Positions 20,036 through 61,108 of a stretch of DNA of 64,000 nucleotides are shown piece by piece. Below the pieces are notes generated by a model. The model had not been told where the DNA came from, did not search any database, and worked only from the letters and a program-made list of their open reading frames with translations. Numbering within the stretch: position 1 is the stretch's first letter; each line of letters opens with the position of its first letter. The DNA comes from an uncultured Chlamydiae bacterium (GTDB lineage: Bacteria > Chlamydiota > Chlamydiia > Chlamydiales > Parachlamydiaceae), in contig CAVWGN010000001.1 in assembly GCA_963754655.1 (NCBI GenBank), positions 1,312,001-1,376,000 of the forward strand. The letters are read 5' to 3'. The translations under genes were made by a program, and so were the position numbers.

Positions 20036-22213
20036 ATGATGATGATGCAGCCAACCACGTTTGAAGAACATTTTTATGATCAACTTTTGCGCATTATCGA
20101 GGCAAGACATCATCAGCCTCATGCTCTTTTAGGCCTCCACCCTTTTTTTGGAGAAAGCAAAGTCATTCGCCTTTGGCGTCCAGGTGCTCAGCAAATTTTC
20201 TTAGAAGTTTTTGGAACTCTTGTGGAAGCGCGTAAAATTCACGAAGCAGGAATTTTTGAATATGTGGTTCCTCAGCATACAACTCTGCATGATTATCGCG
20301 TCTTTCATCAAAACGGGCTTTTAGCGCATGATCCCTATGCCTTTTTGCCTACATTTGGCGATTTAGATCAATATTTGTTTGGTAAAGGAGTGCATTATCA
20401 GCTTTATCAGAATATGGGAGGACGCCTCACTCATCACCAAGGGGTAGCAGGCGCTAAATTTTCTGTTTGGGCACCCAATGCCAGGGGAGTTTCTGTTATT
20501 GGTGATTTCAATTATTGGGATGGCCGATTGAATCCTATGCGTATCATGGGTTATTCTGGTGTCTGGGAGCTTTTCATTCCAGGATTGGTGGAAGGGCAGA
20601 AGTATAAATTTGAAATCCAAACTCAGCAAGGCGAGCGGCTTGTCAAAGCTGACCCTTATGCTTTGATGAGCGAAATGCGGCCGGCCACAGCTTCGGTTCT
20701 CGCCAATATTGAGCGTTTCCAATGGAGTGATCATAGCTGGATGATTGAACGTAGCCATCGGAATATTCAATCGCATCCCATGAGTATTTATGAAGTGCAT
20801 CTCGGTTCTTGGCGTAAACAGGATGATCATTTTCTTAATTATCGAGACCTTGCACATCGGCTAGCCCTCTATTGCCTAGAAATGGGATTTAACTACATTG
20901 AACTTCTTCCCATTCAAGAACATCCGCTGGATGAATCATGGGGATACCAAGTATCGGGTTTTTATGCCCCGACAAGCCGTTTTGGAATGCCTGAAGATTT
21001 TATGTACTTTGTCAATCATTTGCACCAAAACGGGATTGGAGTTATTCTCGATTGGGTGCCAGGCCATTTTCCCACAGATGATTTTTCACTGGGCCGATTC
21101 GATGGTTCTGCTCTCTACGAACATGCCGATCCTCGCCAAGGATATCATCCTCATTGGCATACGCATATTTTTAATTTCGGACGGCATGAAGTCACAAATT
21201 TTCTAATTGCCAATGCCTTATTTTGGTTTGAAGCAATGCATGTGGATGGCTTAAGAGTGGATGCCGTAGCTTCAATGCTTTATTTGGATTACGGACGTGA
21301 AAGTGGTGAATGGATTCCCAATTTGTATGGAGGAAAAGAAAATTTACAGGCCATTGAGTTTATCAAGCACATGAACTCCATTGTCCATTCTCGTTGTCCG
21401 GGGATCCTTACGATTGCTGAGGAATCGACCTCCTTTACAGGAGTCACCCATCCAGTTGACAAAGAAGGGCTGGGATTCGATCTCAAATGGAACATGGGGT
21501 GGATGAATGATACCTTGCGTTATTTTTCCAAAGATCCTATTTACCGACATTACCACCATCACGATTTAACGTTTGGATTGATTTACGCTTTTTCTGAACA
21601 TTTTATCCTTGTCTTTTCTCATGATGAAGTTGTGCATGGCAAGCGAGCGTTATTAAGTAAAATGCCGGGGGACATATGGCAGCAGTTTGCCAATTTACGC
21701 TTGCTTTTGAGTTACATGATGTGCCAGCCAGGAAAAAAATTGATCTTCATGGGAGGGGAAATTGGACAATGGAATGAGTGGAATTGCAAGCGCGAAATCG
21801 AATGGTCTTTATTGGATTACCCCACTCACCATGGCATTCAACAGATGGTCAAAGAGTTGAATCACTTTTATCAGGAGCATCCGGCTCTGTGGGAAAGAGA
21901 CTTTCATTACGACTCTTTCCAATGGGTCGATTTTTTCGATACTCAAAATAGCGTCATCAGTTATTTGCGTAAAGGAGAAAACGAGAAGCTCTTTTGCGTG
22001 CACAATTTTACCTCTGCTTATCATCCCCAGTATGTCTTTCATTTTGGCTCTTTCCACCATATCGAGGAAATTTTTAATTCCGATGCGGAAAGATATGGCG
22101 GATCAAGCAAGTTAAACACACAGCCAGAGGTGATTCAGGATTCAGAGGGTCAAACCATTGGATTAAGAATTGCTTTAGCTCCTCTTGCCACTATGATTTT
22201 CAAAATCCACTAG
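20036..22213 (+). CDS. glgB: 1,4-alpha-glucan branching enzyme
   Basis: FSVWAPNA, IYEVHLGSW, SWGYQ, DWVPGHFP, DGLRVDAVASM, AEEST, SHDEVVHGK GH13 motifs. Confidence 0.98.
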   Translation: MMMMQPTTFEEHFYDQLLRIIEARHHQPHALLGLHPFFGESKVIRLWRPGAQQIFLEVFGTLVEARKIHEAGIFEYVVPQHTTLHDYRVFHQNGLLAHDPYAFLPTFGDLDQYLFGKGVHYQLYQNMGGRLTHHQGVAGAKFSVWAPNARGVSVIGDFNYWDGRLNPMRIMGYSGVWELFIPGLVEGQKYKFEIQTQQGERLVKADPYALMSEMRPATASVLANIERFQWSDHSWMIERSHRNIQSHPMSIYEVHLGSWRKQDDHFLNYRDLAHRLALYCLEMGFNYIELLPIQEHPLDESWGYQVSGFYAPTSRFGMPEDFMYFVNHLHQNGIGVILDWVPGHFPTDDFSLGRFDGSALYEHADPRQGYHPHWHTHIFNFGRHEVTNFLIANALFWFEAMHVDGLRVDAVASMLYLDYGRESGEWIPNLYGGKENLQAIEFIKHMNSIVHSRCPGILTIAEESTSFTGVTHPVDKEGLGFDLKWNMGWMNDTLRYFSKDPIYRHYHHHDLTFGLIYAFSEHFILVFSHDEVVHGKRALLSKMPGDIWQQFANLRLLLSYMMCQPGKKLIFMGGEIGQWNEWNCKREIEWSLLDYPTHHGIQQMVKELNHFYQEHPALWERDFHYDSFQWVDFFDTQNSVISYLRKGENEKLFCVHNFTSAYHPQYVFHFGSFHHIEEIFNSDAERYGGSSKLNTQPEVIQDSEGQTIGLRIALAPLATMIFKIH

Positions 22214-22423
22214 TACTCAACCACACTAGTTTTGTGTATTTAGATTGCTTGAAAGCGCCCGCGGTTGAATTGGCGTAAGTGGGTCAATATTAGCACAATA
22301 TGGACCCAGTTACGCCAATTCAACCCCGGGGCTAGGGTGTTCATTTTTTGCACAAAATGAACACCCTAGCCCCGGGCTTTGAAGCAGTTCCAATGGGCAA
22401 AAACTAATGTGGTTGAGTACTAG
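22210..22423. mobile_element. MITE-like element D (CTAG ends) carrying palindromic cassettes E and F
   Basis: Terminal inverted repeat CTAGTACTCAACCACACTAGTTTT...AAAACTAATGTGGTTGAGTACTAG; left CTAG overlaps the glgB TAG stop; related copies at 33223, 54171 and 60402. Confidence 0.85.
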
Positions 22424-22543
22424 AGGAAGAATAAATATTAGACAGAACTGATGCAACTCAATCCGTTTGGCGCTATTCTCAAATGTCTCTATTTTGTATA
22501 ATCCTACTATCCTCCTATCATTATTTCTACACAATATAGTACT

Positions 22544-59417: not shown

Positions 59418-59535
59418 CTTGTTCAGGAGTGCAACTTTTATTTATTAATATATTTATCAGTTCTTAACAATGTTTTTATTTGTTTTTTATTAACTTTTAT
59501 TAAATTGTATAATAAATAAATTATGGAAGTGTAAA

Positions 59536-60405
59536 ATGGTTAAAATTAGTAGAGAGCCTCCTTATGATTTTTACACTTATTTCGAGAAGGAAGAAAGTGG
59601 CGTATTGCTAGACGATTGGTATGATGAAAATGTAACTTCTGATCGGGTCTTTGAAGAGGCAGAATTAGCTGATCTTATCTCTCCCTTGATGAAAGGACAA
59701 AATGGAGATAGGATTGAAAAAATTACAAATCAATTTATTGAGAGTTTGTATGCAGTTGCGAATCAAGACCAGCAAACGGAAGGTGAGATTGCAACGGGAC
59801 CTTATCATTCTCCTGGCTCACCGAAGCTAGAAAGTCTTAAATTTACTCAGTCTATTGCCTCACGTTCTTATTCAAGAGATACTAATTTTTATGAAGAAAG
59901 TCATTTAGAGCAACCTTTACGCATACAACATGTTGTCAGTGATATTTTATCTACAGCAGCTTATCTTTTCTTGGGCTGGGATCCGTTAAATGGTCAGAAG
60001 GACGATAAAACAATCAAAGAAATAAAAGCAAATTTGTATAAGAATCGCGTATTTTGGCAGAAGGAGTTAAAAAACTATTACTCTTCTTATTTCCAAGATA
60101 AAATGGAACTAGCCTTTTATAAAGCGGAGCAATTAATCCAAAGTCAGATGGAAGCTCAAAAGTGGGCATTTATTCAACGATTGACACTTTATGCGACTTT
60201 AATTATTGCTGCCGTTGGAAAGTTACAGGGAAACAGGATGATGCTAATGTTCGGATTAAGTGCTTCTGTCGTTACCATTCTCTTTATGATTATCCATTAT
60301 GGATCGACTTCTTTTAAGCACGCGCAACAAGGAGCGGATTTAAGACAATCTCTTACATTAGCCGAAAACTTAAAAAATCTATTTAATGAATGGAATAATG
60401 GCTAG
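59536..60405 (+). CDS. Hypothetical protein with bilobed hydrophobic segment (Inc-like candidate)
   Basis: LTLYATLIIAAVG-KLQGNR-MMLMFGLSASVVTILFMII hydrophobic hairpin; hydrophilic N-terminus with no signal peptide. Confidence 0.7.
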   Translation: MVKISREPPYDFYTYFEKEESGVLLDDWYDENVTSDRVFEEAELADLISPLMKGQNGDRIEKITNQFIESLYAVANQDQQTEGEIATGPYHSPGSPKLESLKFTQSIASRSYSRDTNFYEESHLEQPLRIQHVVSDILSTAAYLFLGWDPLNGQKDDKTIKEIKANLYKNRVFWQKELKNYYSSYFQDKMELAFYKAEQLIQSQMEAQKWAFIQRLTLYATLIIAAVGKLQGNRMMLMFGLSASVVTILFMIIHYGSTSFKHAQQGADLRQSLTLAENLKNLFNEWNNG

Positions 60406-61108
60406 TACTCAACCACACTAGTTTTGTGTATTTAGACTGCTTCAAAGCCCCGGGGTTGAATTGGCGTAAGTGGTCAATATTAGCACAATATGGACCCAAT
60501 TACGCCAATTCAACCGTGGGGCTAGGGTGTTCATTTTGTGCAAAAAATAAGCGTAATAATTGGCATAATTAAATTGAAGGTCGCATGTTTATGCCGTCCT
60601 TTCAGGACTCGATGTCTTTTTGATAGAACCCAGGCCTCCGCTTCGCTGCGACCTGGGCTGTAACATGACGGCCCTTCAGGCCTTAACAAAAGAGATTTAA
60701 GTCCCTCTTCTATAGTCCATAAATAGTCCTTTTGTTAAGGCTTAAAGGGCCGGCCCTTCAGGCTTAACAAGAGATGTTTAAGTCCCTCTTCTATAGTCCC
60801 TAAATCATCTTTTTGTTAAGGCTTGAAGGGCCGTCATGTTACAGCCCAGGTCGCAGCGAAGCGGAGGCCTGGGTTCTATCAAAAAGACATCGAGTCCTGA
60901 AAGGACGGCATAAACATACGACTTTCAATTTAACTATGCCAATTATTGTAAAAAATAAAGCTCATTTTTTGCACAAAATGAACACCCTAGCCCCGGATTG
61001 AATTGGCGTAACTGGGTCCATATTGCTAATATTGACCCACTTACGCCAATTCAACCCCGGGGCTTTGAAGCAGTCTAAATACACAAAACTAATGTGGTTG
61101 AGTACTAG
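60402..61108. mobile_element. Full nested palindrome D-E-B-E'-D' (707 bp)
   Basis: CTAG ends; inverted arms from the termini to a duplicated central core; left CTAG overlaps the TAG stop of 59536-60405. Confidence 0.92.

Follow-up and report, generated by a model that had tools for sequence, protein, structure and literature searches.

How do palindromic repeats that share one outer shell come to carry different hairpins inside it? The question is raised by a window of 64,000 nucleotides (the whole stretch of DNA that was analysed) from an uncultured bacterium of the Parachlamydiaceae, where an earlier note had described four copies of a CTAG-ended shell, D, enclosing hairpin modules E, F, and B, and had proposed that the cassettes are gained at a self-regenerating palindromic site. 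Judged by L13 similarity, the host is Parachlamydiaceae-like. The nested palindromes of the window are confirmed as genuine structures. On the evidence of five loci in this one 64-kb window, the reading that we favour, with some reserve, is a family of composite palindromic repeats that are non-autonomous and specific to this lineage, a BIME/BOX-like mosaic of a CTAG-targeting MITE shell and REPIN-like hairpins. The family is probably a fresh variety of a known bacterial repeat type, in which mobile hairpins are nested inside one another, and the differences from copy to copy look mostly like later collapse or self-copying, not like the growth of a cassette-collecting array.

The shell, its contents, and a fifth locus

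All four copies of D were recovered where the earlier note had placed them, with the contents that it had listed (Table 1), and its description of them as non-autonomous modular hairpin elements is supported. Folded as single-stranded DNA, L1, L3, and L4 have z-scores of -16.5, -15.4, and -43.3, and no shuffled sequence folded as well (0/200, 0/200, and 0/20, respectively). The core of L3 (54207-54286) is a perfect 80-bp palindrome without a spacer; its left end has a 3-bp TAC duplication, and its right end is decayed.

Table 1. Coordinates of the repeats and neighbouring elements in the window
Feature	Position	Strand	Remark
L1 D[E,F]	22210-22423	.	214 bp
L1 D-left	22210-22255
L1 junction D-left/E	22256-22264
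L1 E	22265-22323
L1 octamer E/F	22324-22331
L1 F	22332-22369
L1 junction F/D-right	22370-22376
L1 D-right	22377-22423
L2 D-left + truncated B	33223-33682	.
L2 D-left	33223-33267
L2 octamer	33268-33275
L2 B	33276-33679		right arm cut short
L3 D[F]	54171-54320	.	150 bp
L4 D[E,B,E']	60402-61108	.	707-bp near-palindrome
L4 E	60456-60513
L4 B	60522-60990		two central units
L4 E'	60998-61054		inverted copy of E
L4 D-right	61063-61108		converted to left-arm sequence
B outside D	11388..11783	.	ends TTAGGGTG/CACCCTAA, one central unit
Hairpin G with junctions	11784..12355	.	G itself 11792-12347
Shell H around B and G	11188..12626	.	CAGGG/CCCTG ends
B inner arm motif, Acido-Lenti-1 (RF01687)	60629..60683	+	36.4 bits, gathering score 37
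B inner arm motif, Acido-Lenti-1	11504-11558	+	35.2 bits
B inner arm motif, Acido-Lenti-1	11613-11667	-	35.2 bits
B inner arm motif, Acido-Lenti-1	60819-60873	-	25.1 bits
IS607 tnpA + tnpB	33775..35539	-	context, adjoins L2
IS5-family element (IS427-like, two overlapping ORFs)	43884..44729	-	context, CTAG both sides

D is short and non-coding, with terminal inverted repeats whose 24-bp arms carry one fixed mismatch (L1 and L4), and it is dispersed as a MITE would be, with four copies in 64 kb. CTAG ends all seven D arms (four left, three right), and the flanks beyond it are unrelated; this arrangement at both sides fits a duplication of TA or CTAG. The arms are also consistently asymmetric, with C in 4/4 left arms and T in 3/3 right arms. 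The left CTAG of L1 supplies the stop codon of glgB and that of L4 the stop codon of ORF 59536-60405. These belong with the target preference: just two among the 43 listed genes end in C-TAG, and D lies at both, while 0/7 other TAG-ending genes have a D. With the IS end left out, D sits at 2/7 intergenic CTAG sites and at 0/90 intragenic ones, and it fills four of the nine tolerated CTAG sites in the window. L2 also stops at CTAG; this is probably the right CTAG that belongs to D, brought there by an internal deletion at an AC microhomology. Among the five loci of the window, neither D nor B was found to have an empty site.

The fifth locus (11188-12626), overlooked by the earlier note, holds B without D, in another shell and beside a further hairpin, G; B is present in two unrelated shells, D and H. 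The 179-bp arms of this B have zero differences, and those of G (236 bp) have two. G abuts B at CCCAGGGG and is closed by the mirrored CCCCTGGG. H is made of two 151-bp hairpin units arranged as direct repeats, with 16-bp REP-like junctions, and is flanked by a 10-bp direct repeat with one mismatch (11178-11187 and 12627-12636). Target duplications of ISAs1 measure 8-10 bp, and the ends of H appear ISAs1-like, although the likeness is suggestive only: 17/26 positions on the left and 13/26 on the right agree with one ISAs1 end, and 2/50 CAGGG-starting sites in the window, H's own included, reach 17. A supposed mirrored remnant of B after G was dropped, as its bases are accounted for by the repeat of H itself. 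This genome retains palindromes that have no spacer or whose arms measure 180-290 bp, a hint that hairpin DNA may be cleared less strictly in this host.

GC octamers and the origin of the differing cargoes

What do the junctions record? As the earlier note had claimed, all ten internal boundaries are CCCCGGGG (six) or a variant of it (four: CGCCCGCGG, CCCCGGG, CCGTGGGG, and CCCCGGA). Exact CCCCGGGG occurs six times in the 64 kb, every time inside a D locus, where 0.07-0.14 occurrences are expected (Markov orders 1-3). The variants count by position alone, because two-mismatch octamers are frequent outside the loci (35 in 60,988 bases). The octamer itself stands, but the shared junction is closer to 12 bp, AR-CCCCGGGG-YT, than to the 8-bp site first proposed. 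The octamers of D[F] and D[B] belong to the inner stem of D, which is self-complementary, so that E alone brings an additional octamer into D; E is common to L1 and L4, and its insertion was probably one event.

The remaining contents of D have other explanations. F had been taken for a separate cassette; at L1, it is exactly the first 16 and last 29 bases of B joined over a 7-bp overlap, and at L3, two further changes are needed after the deletion from B. E' is not a gained cassette but an inverted E, with two differences from the E of L1 as a reverse complement versus seven as a direct copy. Beside it, the right arm of D in L4 differs from the left arm in one column, as compared to 12-13 columns in L1 and L3. 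The inversion of E' and the near-identical D arms of L4 can therefore be explained by one arm-copying event, in which, apparently, E' arose as D's arm was copied from left to right. The truncation of L2, in turn, looks like an internal deletion. The tnpB end of the neighbouring IS607 lies 93 bp from the end of L2, and, as far as the sequence tells, this element did not cause the truncation: the break is ~90 bp from the IS end, which is placed by the IS607 end motif, and has a microhomology of its own.

Thus, the part of the cassette-array model that holds is that the unrelated modules D, E, B/F, and G abut exactly at GC octamers; the part that does not is the reading of the differing cargoes as repeated gains at a self-regenerating site, as F, E', and L2 are explained otherwise. 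Could D still carry a recombination site, AR-CCCC/GGGG-YT, at which an enzyme inserts GGGG-YT hairpin cassettes and regenerates the site, so that arrays accrete? Four unrelated modules in three pairings (D with E, E with B or F, and B with G) join exactly where the octamer or one of its variants stands; GGGG-YT opens D, E, and B/F alike; the right-hand neighbour of B resembles the octamer even within shell H; and the insertion of E did add an octamer, which TA targeting does not explain. Nevertheless, F, E', and the L2 truncation need no gain, which leaves about one event inside D, and direct-repeat regeneration of the site fits that one event, E, whereas E' and F are no insertions at all. The earlier note had named modules found genome-wide without octamer junctions as evidence against its model, and the left boundary of B in H goes some way towards this. 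Moreover, the two G junctions are reverse complements, mirrored and not duplicated, an arrangement that an 8-bp target duplication would yield only if the arms were copied later. TIRYT-associated repeats begin with GGGGWSAS (PMC3733652), and the B T variant is one mismatch away (7/8), but G agrees at 6/8, E at 5/8, and the inner end of D at 4/8. No linked recombinase was found at the five loci, where the neighbours are housekeeping or unknown genes and the serine recombinase of IS607 is close to just one of them, L2. We regard this explanation as improbable, and hold the same doubt about its fuller form, a non-coding site-specific cassette system with an HUH/Y1 or other recombinase, a GGGG-YT half-site, blunt insertion at the AR-CCCC/GGGG-YT axis, and the CTAG-targeting shell as carrier. 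A 9-mer common to the end of E and the inner layer of B, spotted post hoc, was reached by 19/1000 shuffles and is not relied on.

REP-like hairpins and candidate mobilising enzymes

B and F consist of two inverted hairpin units with their feet outward, as REPs and REPINs do, and from its sequence B resembles a REP doublet. The foot is CTAG in 5/9 ends and TTAG in 4/9, not the canonical GT[AG]G. The same TAGGGTG/CACCCTA ends occur on the REP doublets that flank a RAYT relative at locus L021 (eight ends), the 7-mer TAGGGTG has 18 occurrences in the REP table of PMC6006769, and 9/10 of its sites in the window are B/F ends. The inner arms of B approach the Rfam motif Acido-Lenti-1, with all four arms scanned (L4 and the fifth locus) falling below 37 bits; L2 was scanned at the gathering threshold only. 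Acido-Lenti-1 is multi-copy in one Lentisphaera assembly, and it lies beside RAYT-related genes at 0/9 loci. Scans for a Y1 transposase or RAYT found none among 42 and 18 window ORFs.

The earlier note had also stated that the window holds no cognate transposase. Two IS elements, one of the IS607 and one of the IS5 family, are in fact present, although neither has ends that match D, and the statement holds in this narrow sense alone. The IS5-family element was inserted at CTAG, which it duplicated—the insertion site is a single CTAG in two paralogous Myb-repeat genes—and its ends are unlike those of D or B.

IS630 elements prefer CTAG. Might every layer be the work of DDE transposases, with the outer 13 bp of D, the inner part of D, and B each a TA-duplicating MITE (IS5/IS427 or IS630) inserted at a hairpin-apex YTAR, and the octamers mere bystanders? 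TA lies within YTAR at 7/7 D ends and 9/9 B/F ends, every layer has Y-TA-G on the left and C-TA-R on the right, as in the window's IS5-family element, and the fixed C/T asymmetry of D is directly beside such a TA. TA duplication is known in the IS630 family (PMC2170065), 2-bp repeats fill most rows for the IS427 group in the table of PMC3281130, and the parsed ends of eight relatives begin with TAGG (ten loci were fetched; L008 and L010 were dropped, as their ends were not parsed). However, in-register similarity to the IS427-type ends is absent: D, B, and F score 7.5, 6.2, and 7.0 of 16 against a control mean of 6.3 (n=1492), while IS-against-IS comparisons score 9.7 of 16 (18 IS427-type ends). 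E and G have no TA boundary, the flanks of B in H retain GG/CC and the octamer-like right side, and, as for the asymmetry, one mismatch between the arms of an inverted repeat is commonplace in IS ends. We consider such all-DDE nesting slightly less probable still than a regenerating site. Finally, an artefact of short-read assembly, in which palindromic repeats were joined or homogenised, is very improbable: the fifth-locus arms of B and G are indeed identical over 179 and 224 bp, respectively, and the B loop has opposite orientations relative to D-left in L2 and L4, but the two loci L1 and L3 are short, private substitutions mark every copy, and the D ends retain native stop codons and their fixed asymmetry. 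Assembly error might alter L2, L4, and the fifth locus in detail but would leave the family intact.

The composite-repeat reading, in which a MITE shell is combined with REPIN-like hairpins, would proceed in three steps.

Shell spread: D (~100 bp, with a 24-bp near-perfect terminal inverted repeat) would insert at CTAG sites in the manner of a MITE, duplicating TA or CTAG as it spreads; the transposase would be encoded in another part of the genome. The CTAG target is observed, and the enzyme is presumably of the DDE type. Since relatives of the repeats were not found elsewhere, we can only infer the mobilising enzymes.

Hairpin landing: Independent hairpins (the REP-doublet-like B, E, and G) would then insert where existing hairpins have their GC-rich axis of symmetry; the probable agent is a single-strand transposase of the Y1/HUH class (RAYT/TIRYT-like), acting without target duplication. 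CCCCGGGG would recur mainly as D's self-complementary inner stem and as the preferred landing axis.

Palindrome reshaping: The nested palindromes would subsequently reshape themselves. Pairs of short direct repeats would give rise to deletions (B to F, and L2), and the template would switch from one arm to the other (giving E' and D-right at L4, and the perfect arms at L3 and the fifth locus). The scars left in the sequence fit this last step.

Known systems and biological meaning

The claim that this is not a described family is borne out, with nothing D-like in GTDB representatives, plasmids, phages, or Rfam. The GTDB scan, which used the D end as its query, returned two matches to the 19-base pattern, one on a Polaribacter and one on a Legionellales MAG contig; each lies within an ORF and lacks a partner arm, and we attribute them to chance. 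Plasmid blastn with L4 and the fifth locus gave no match; the short module queries gave only E-values of at least 0.2, the one match opened being inside a coding sequence; and phage blastn with L4 likewise gave only E-values of at least 0.2. Rfam yielded zero matches at the gathering threshold, and its miRNA-precursor matches are due to nothing but the length of the hairpins. A model built from the sequences of the D arms recovered its own seven training arms, with the four other matches at E-values of at least 0.07, and the literature searched contains no account of such repeats in this chlamydial group.

Among known systems, BIMEs and REPIN clusters share the intergenic hairpin doublets, the outward NTAG foot, the overlap with stop codons, the nesting, the central deletion to a double-foot unit (F), and, in the REPINs at L021, the TAGGGTG end. 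REPINs insert into or beside REPINs, and doublets lose their centre by deletion (PMC3116915; PMC6006769); REP termini with GTAG supply TAG stop codons (PMC3733652). Here, in contrast, the foot is CTAG/TTAG, the arms reach up to 236 bp, the shell targets CTAG, the window has no RAYT, and the junction is a bare GC octamer. Pneumococcal BOX (boxA-boxB(n)-boxC), compared here by architecture, likewise has a fixed shell with variable self-folding modules, undergoes slippage or deletion that gains or loses boxB, and takes part in mutual insertion with RUP and SPRITE (PMC3049150), whereas the modules of D are unrelated hairpins and not tandem copies. The TA/CTAG MITEs (ERIC, RUP, Correia, and the IS5/IS427 and IS630 derivatives) are similarly short and non-coding, with terminal inverted repeats, TA/CTAG ends, and tolerated sites only, but the ends of D match no IS compared, and D is never seen empty. 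TIRYT/TIRtrons (Y1 subclass 2.1) have inverted repeats that start with GGGG and come in dimers or clusters, some of them self-complementary (PMC3733652), yet only the B T variant nears their motif, and the window has no TIRYT gene. Acido-Lenti-1 shares a two-hairpin motif whose linker letters match in the inner arms of B, and is multi-copy in a PVC genome, but the scores of 25-36 bits lie under the cut-off of 37, and here the motif forms inverted doublets inside a larger element.

The repeats are likely selfish DNA, which may have local effects on how stable transcripts are or on read-through; when L1 and L4 were scanned for promoters and terminators, there was no excess over shuffles. If the cassette system were true, it would be a minimal site-regenerating insertion system together with a REP-like element with a CTAG/TTAG foot, and it would follow that a Y1 enzyme uses a guide other than GTAG and that enzymes of two classes act on one composite replicon. 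As matters stand, the repeats are a dense, undescribed family of nested palindromes in a chlamydial lineage, whose copies preserve in compact form how palindromes collapse and how one arm is copied onto the other.

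Shell D, its octamer junctions and its CTAG sites

The four loci (L1–L4) that the earlier note described as sharing the CTAG-ended outer shell D are all found in the window. CTAG terminates 7/7 D arms, while the sequence outside it is unrelated between the copies, and a search with a model built on these seven arms finds no further D in the window. The internal module boundaries, ten in number, were claimed to be a palindromic octamer or a close variant of it, and this is borne out at each of them (10/10): six are exact CCCCGGGG and four are variants. The exact octamer occurs six times in the window, always at these boundaries, as compared to 0.07–0.14 expected, and the junctions also share its flanking letters, in the 12-bp consensus AR-CCCCGGGG-YT. 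The folds of L1, L3, and L4 are far stronger than those of shuffled sequences (z -16.5, -15.4, and -43.3, respectively). The core of L3 is a perfect palindrome without a spacer; a perfect, spacer-free 80-bp palindrome rarely persists in bacterial chromosomes.

D is present at both C-TAG-ending genes among the 43 listed (glgB and the ORF that precedes L4) and at 0/7 other TAG-ending genes; it occupies 2/7 intergenic and 0/90 intragenic CTAG sites. This is probably the pattern expected of a CTAG-targeting element with selection against gene disruption.

The fifth locus, overlooked in the earlier note, contains module B without D, adjoining the 556-bp hairpin G within a second shell, H. The B–G junction is CCCAGGGG, the far end of G is its reverse complement CCCCTGGG, and the left boundary of B lacks the octamer. 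The 10-bp repeat flanking shell H contains a single mismatch; H itself, with CAGGG at its ends, consists of 151-bp hairpin units connected by a 16-bp REP-like palindrome. Its ends match one ISAs1 end at 17/26 and 13/26 positions, a likeness that is suggestive only. Shell H directly follows a terminator-like hairpin, between two giant ORFs, neither of which matches NCBIfam or Pfam at E 0.001.

Positions of the features in the window
Feature	Positions	Content
Long ORF	3846-11132	2428 aa
Terminator-like hairpin	11165-11200	
Fifth locus	11188-12626	H with B, G
B central unit, fifth locus	11544-11627	single
Long ORF	12888-17387	1499 aa
L1	22210-22423	D with E, F
L2	33223-33682	D-left, cut-short B
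B central unit, L2	33433-33599	tandem pair
IS607, beside L2	33775-35539	serine-recombinase tnpA; apparently intact 424-aa TnpB
Myb-repeat genes	43286-48209	three tandem paralogues, first split by IS5-family element
IS5-family (IS427-like) element	43884-44729	two overlapping ORFs, A9 run in overlap; ~19-bp inverted repeats; at CTAG
Tandem repeat, second Myb-repeat gene	46231-46299	12-bp unit
L3	54171-54320	D with F
L3 core	54207-54286	80-bp palindrome
C-TAG-ending ORF with D	59536-60405	
L4	60402-61108	D with E, B, E'
B central unit, L4	60669-60833	tandem pair

Probable collapse and arm copying, and proposed mobility

How did the copies arise? In F at L1 (38 bases), the first 16 are the left end of B and the last 29 its right end, and E', the third module of L4, has two differences from the E of L1 as a reverse complement and seven as a direct copy. 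As judged by sequence, F at L1 is a deletion in B across a 7-bp overlap, and E' is an inverted E. F at L3 is compatible with the same deletion plus two changes, each perfecting the palindrome. This B-to-F step resembles the derivation of a double-foot REP, which can come from an inverted dimer by central deletion (PMC6006769). The D arm beside E' differs from the left arm in one column (L1, 13; L3, 12), and a single template switch, copying the D-left inner part and E rightward, could account for both E' and this arm. The two B arms of the fifth locus show 0/176 differing columns when compared with one another and 2–7 against other loci, again suggesting arm-to-arm copying; the process would not be uniform, given that the B arms of L4 differ in 8/167 columns. 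The break in L2 lies at an AC common to the right arm of B and the right end of D, with CTAG retained. L2 and L4 both have the doubled B central hairpin unit, and therefore share a common ancestor. The unit copies meet at the palindromic GGCCGGCC, and the doubling may be the same slippage-type behavior at a different short palindrome.

The earlier note reported no cognate transposase in the window. Two IS elements are present, and the part of the statement that stands is that the ends of neither match D; those of the IS5-family element do not match B either. This IS5-family element agrees with the IS427 group in size and two-ORF layout, as tabulated in PMC3281130. CTAG borders it left and right, whereas in the two paralogous Myb-repeat genes the site holds a single CTAG; a DDE enzyme that duplicates CTAG has therefore been active in this genome. 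Each of the three tandem genes encodes three Myb DNA-binding repeats of eukaryote type (Pfam PF00249, E ~1e-40), and their products are possibly host-directed proteins of an amoeba symbiont.

The positions of D show its targeting of CTAG, B is present in two shells, and the sequence scars agree with collapse and arm copying. We propose that a DDE transposase would move D and that a Y1/HUH enzyme may move the inner hairpins, with hairpin axes as their preferred landing sites. In related systems, REPINs insert into or beside other REPINs (PMC3116915), BOX modules and other repeats are inserted within one another (PMC3049150), and REPs are targets of IS elements (PMC3184786); passages from 10.1101/119735, PMC11602168, PMC10969869, 10.64898/2026.10.21.760802, PMC3686654, and 10.1101/2021.07.10.451892 hold nothing specific. 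Alternatively, the outer 13 bp of D, its inner part, and B could be separate insertions, each at TA, the dinucleotide duplicated by an IS630-family element (PMC2170065). The Y-TA-G/C-TA-R pattern and the single fixed asymmetry of D agree with such insertions, but their ends resemble those of IS427-type elements no more than background, and E and G are left unexplained. An array gaining cassettes at a self-regenerating octamer, as the earlier note had it, is unlikely and draws on one or two events: within D, one event fits (E, which alone contributes a third octamer), and a second, the B–G junction, is mirrored, not duplicated. D carrying F or B has the octamer on both sides because the octamer is the self-complementary base of the D inner stem, and since it is palindromic, models with 0-, 2-, 4-, or 8-bp duplications predict identical exact junctions.

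Affinities of the modules and the host

B is a pair of short hairpins whose YTAG foot points outward. Because this foot is CTAG or TTAG, in contrast to the GT[AG]G of REPINs, B is not classed as a REPIN. TAGGGTG occurs ten times in the window, nine of them as B or F ends, and 18 times in the supplementary REP table of PMC6006769. It also ends RAYT-associated REP doublets (eight ends) at one of the nine RAYT-related loci with flanks examined. There, four REP doublets that end in GTAGGGTG, three of which lie in tandem, surround a RAYT relative on a Chloroflexota plasmid (594-1614 of locus L021). TIRYT repeats begin with GGGGWSAS (PMC3733652; PMC6006769), and only the T variant of B comes within one letter of it. 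The inner arms of B score 36.4, 35.2, 35.2, and 25.1 bits against Rfam Acido-Lenti-1, linker letters included, with the cut-off at 37, while G, though equally a hairpin, has no match. Acido-Lenti-1 is multi-copy in one Lentisphaera assembly, according to the authors' supplementary alignment (PMC2864571), and is found at 0/9 RAYT-related loci.

The window carries chlamydial housekeeping genes. The host placement is based on L13 alone, whose best relatives are 88–90% identical, the named ones being Parachlamydiaceae, Parachlamydia, and Protochlamydia. The exact 19-base D-end pattern has two matches in 185,579 GTDB representatives, both rejected as chance. Plasmids and phages yielded no relatives of these repeats, and Rfam no match at the gathering threshold. 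The earlier note recognized no described family, and the full-text literature searched, with subscription papers mostly outside it, likewise contains no description. The repeat family is real and undescribed, and apparently lineage-specific; it is best filed among the bacterial composite palindromic repeats, as a variant of them.
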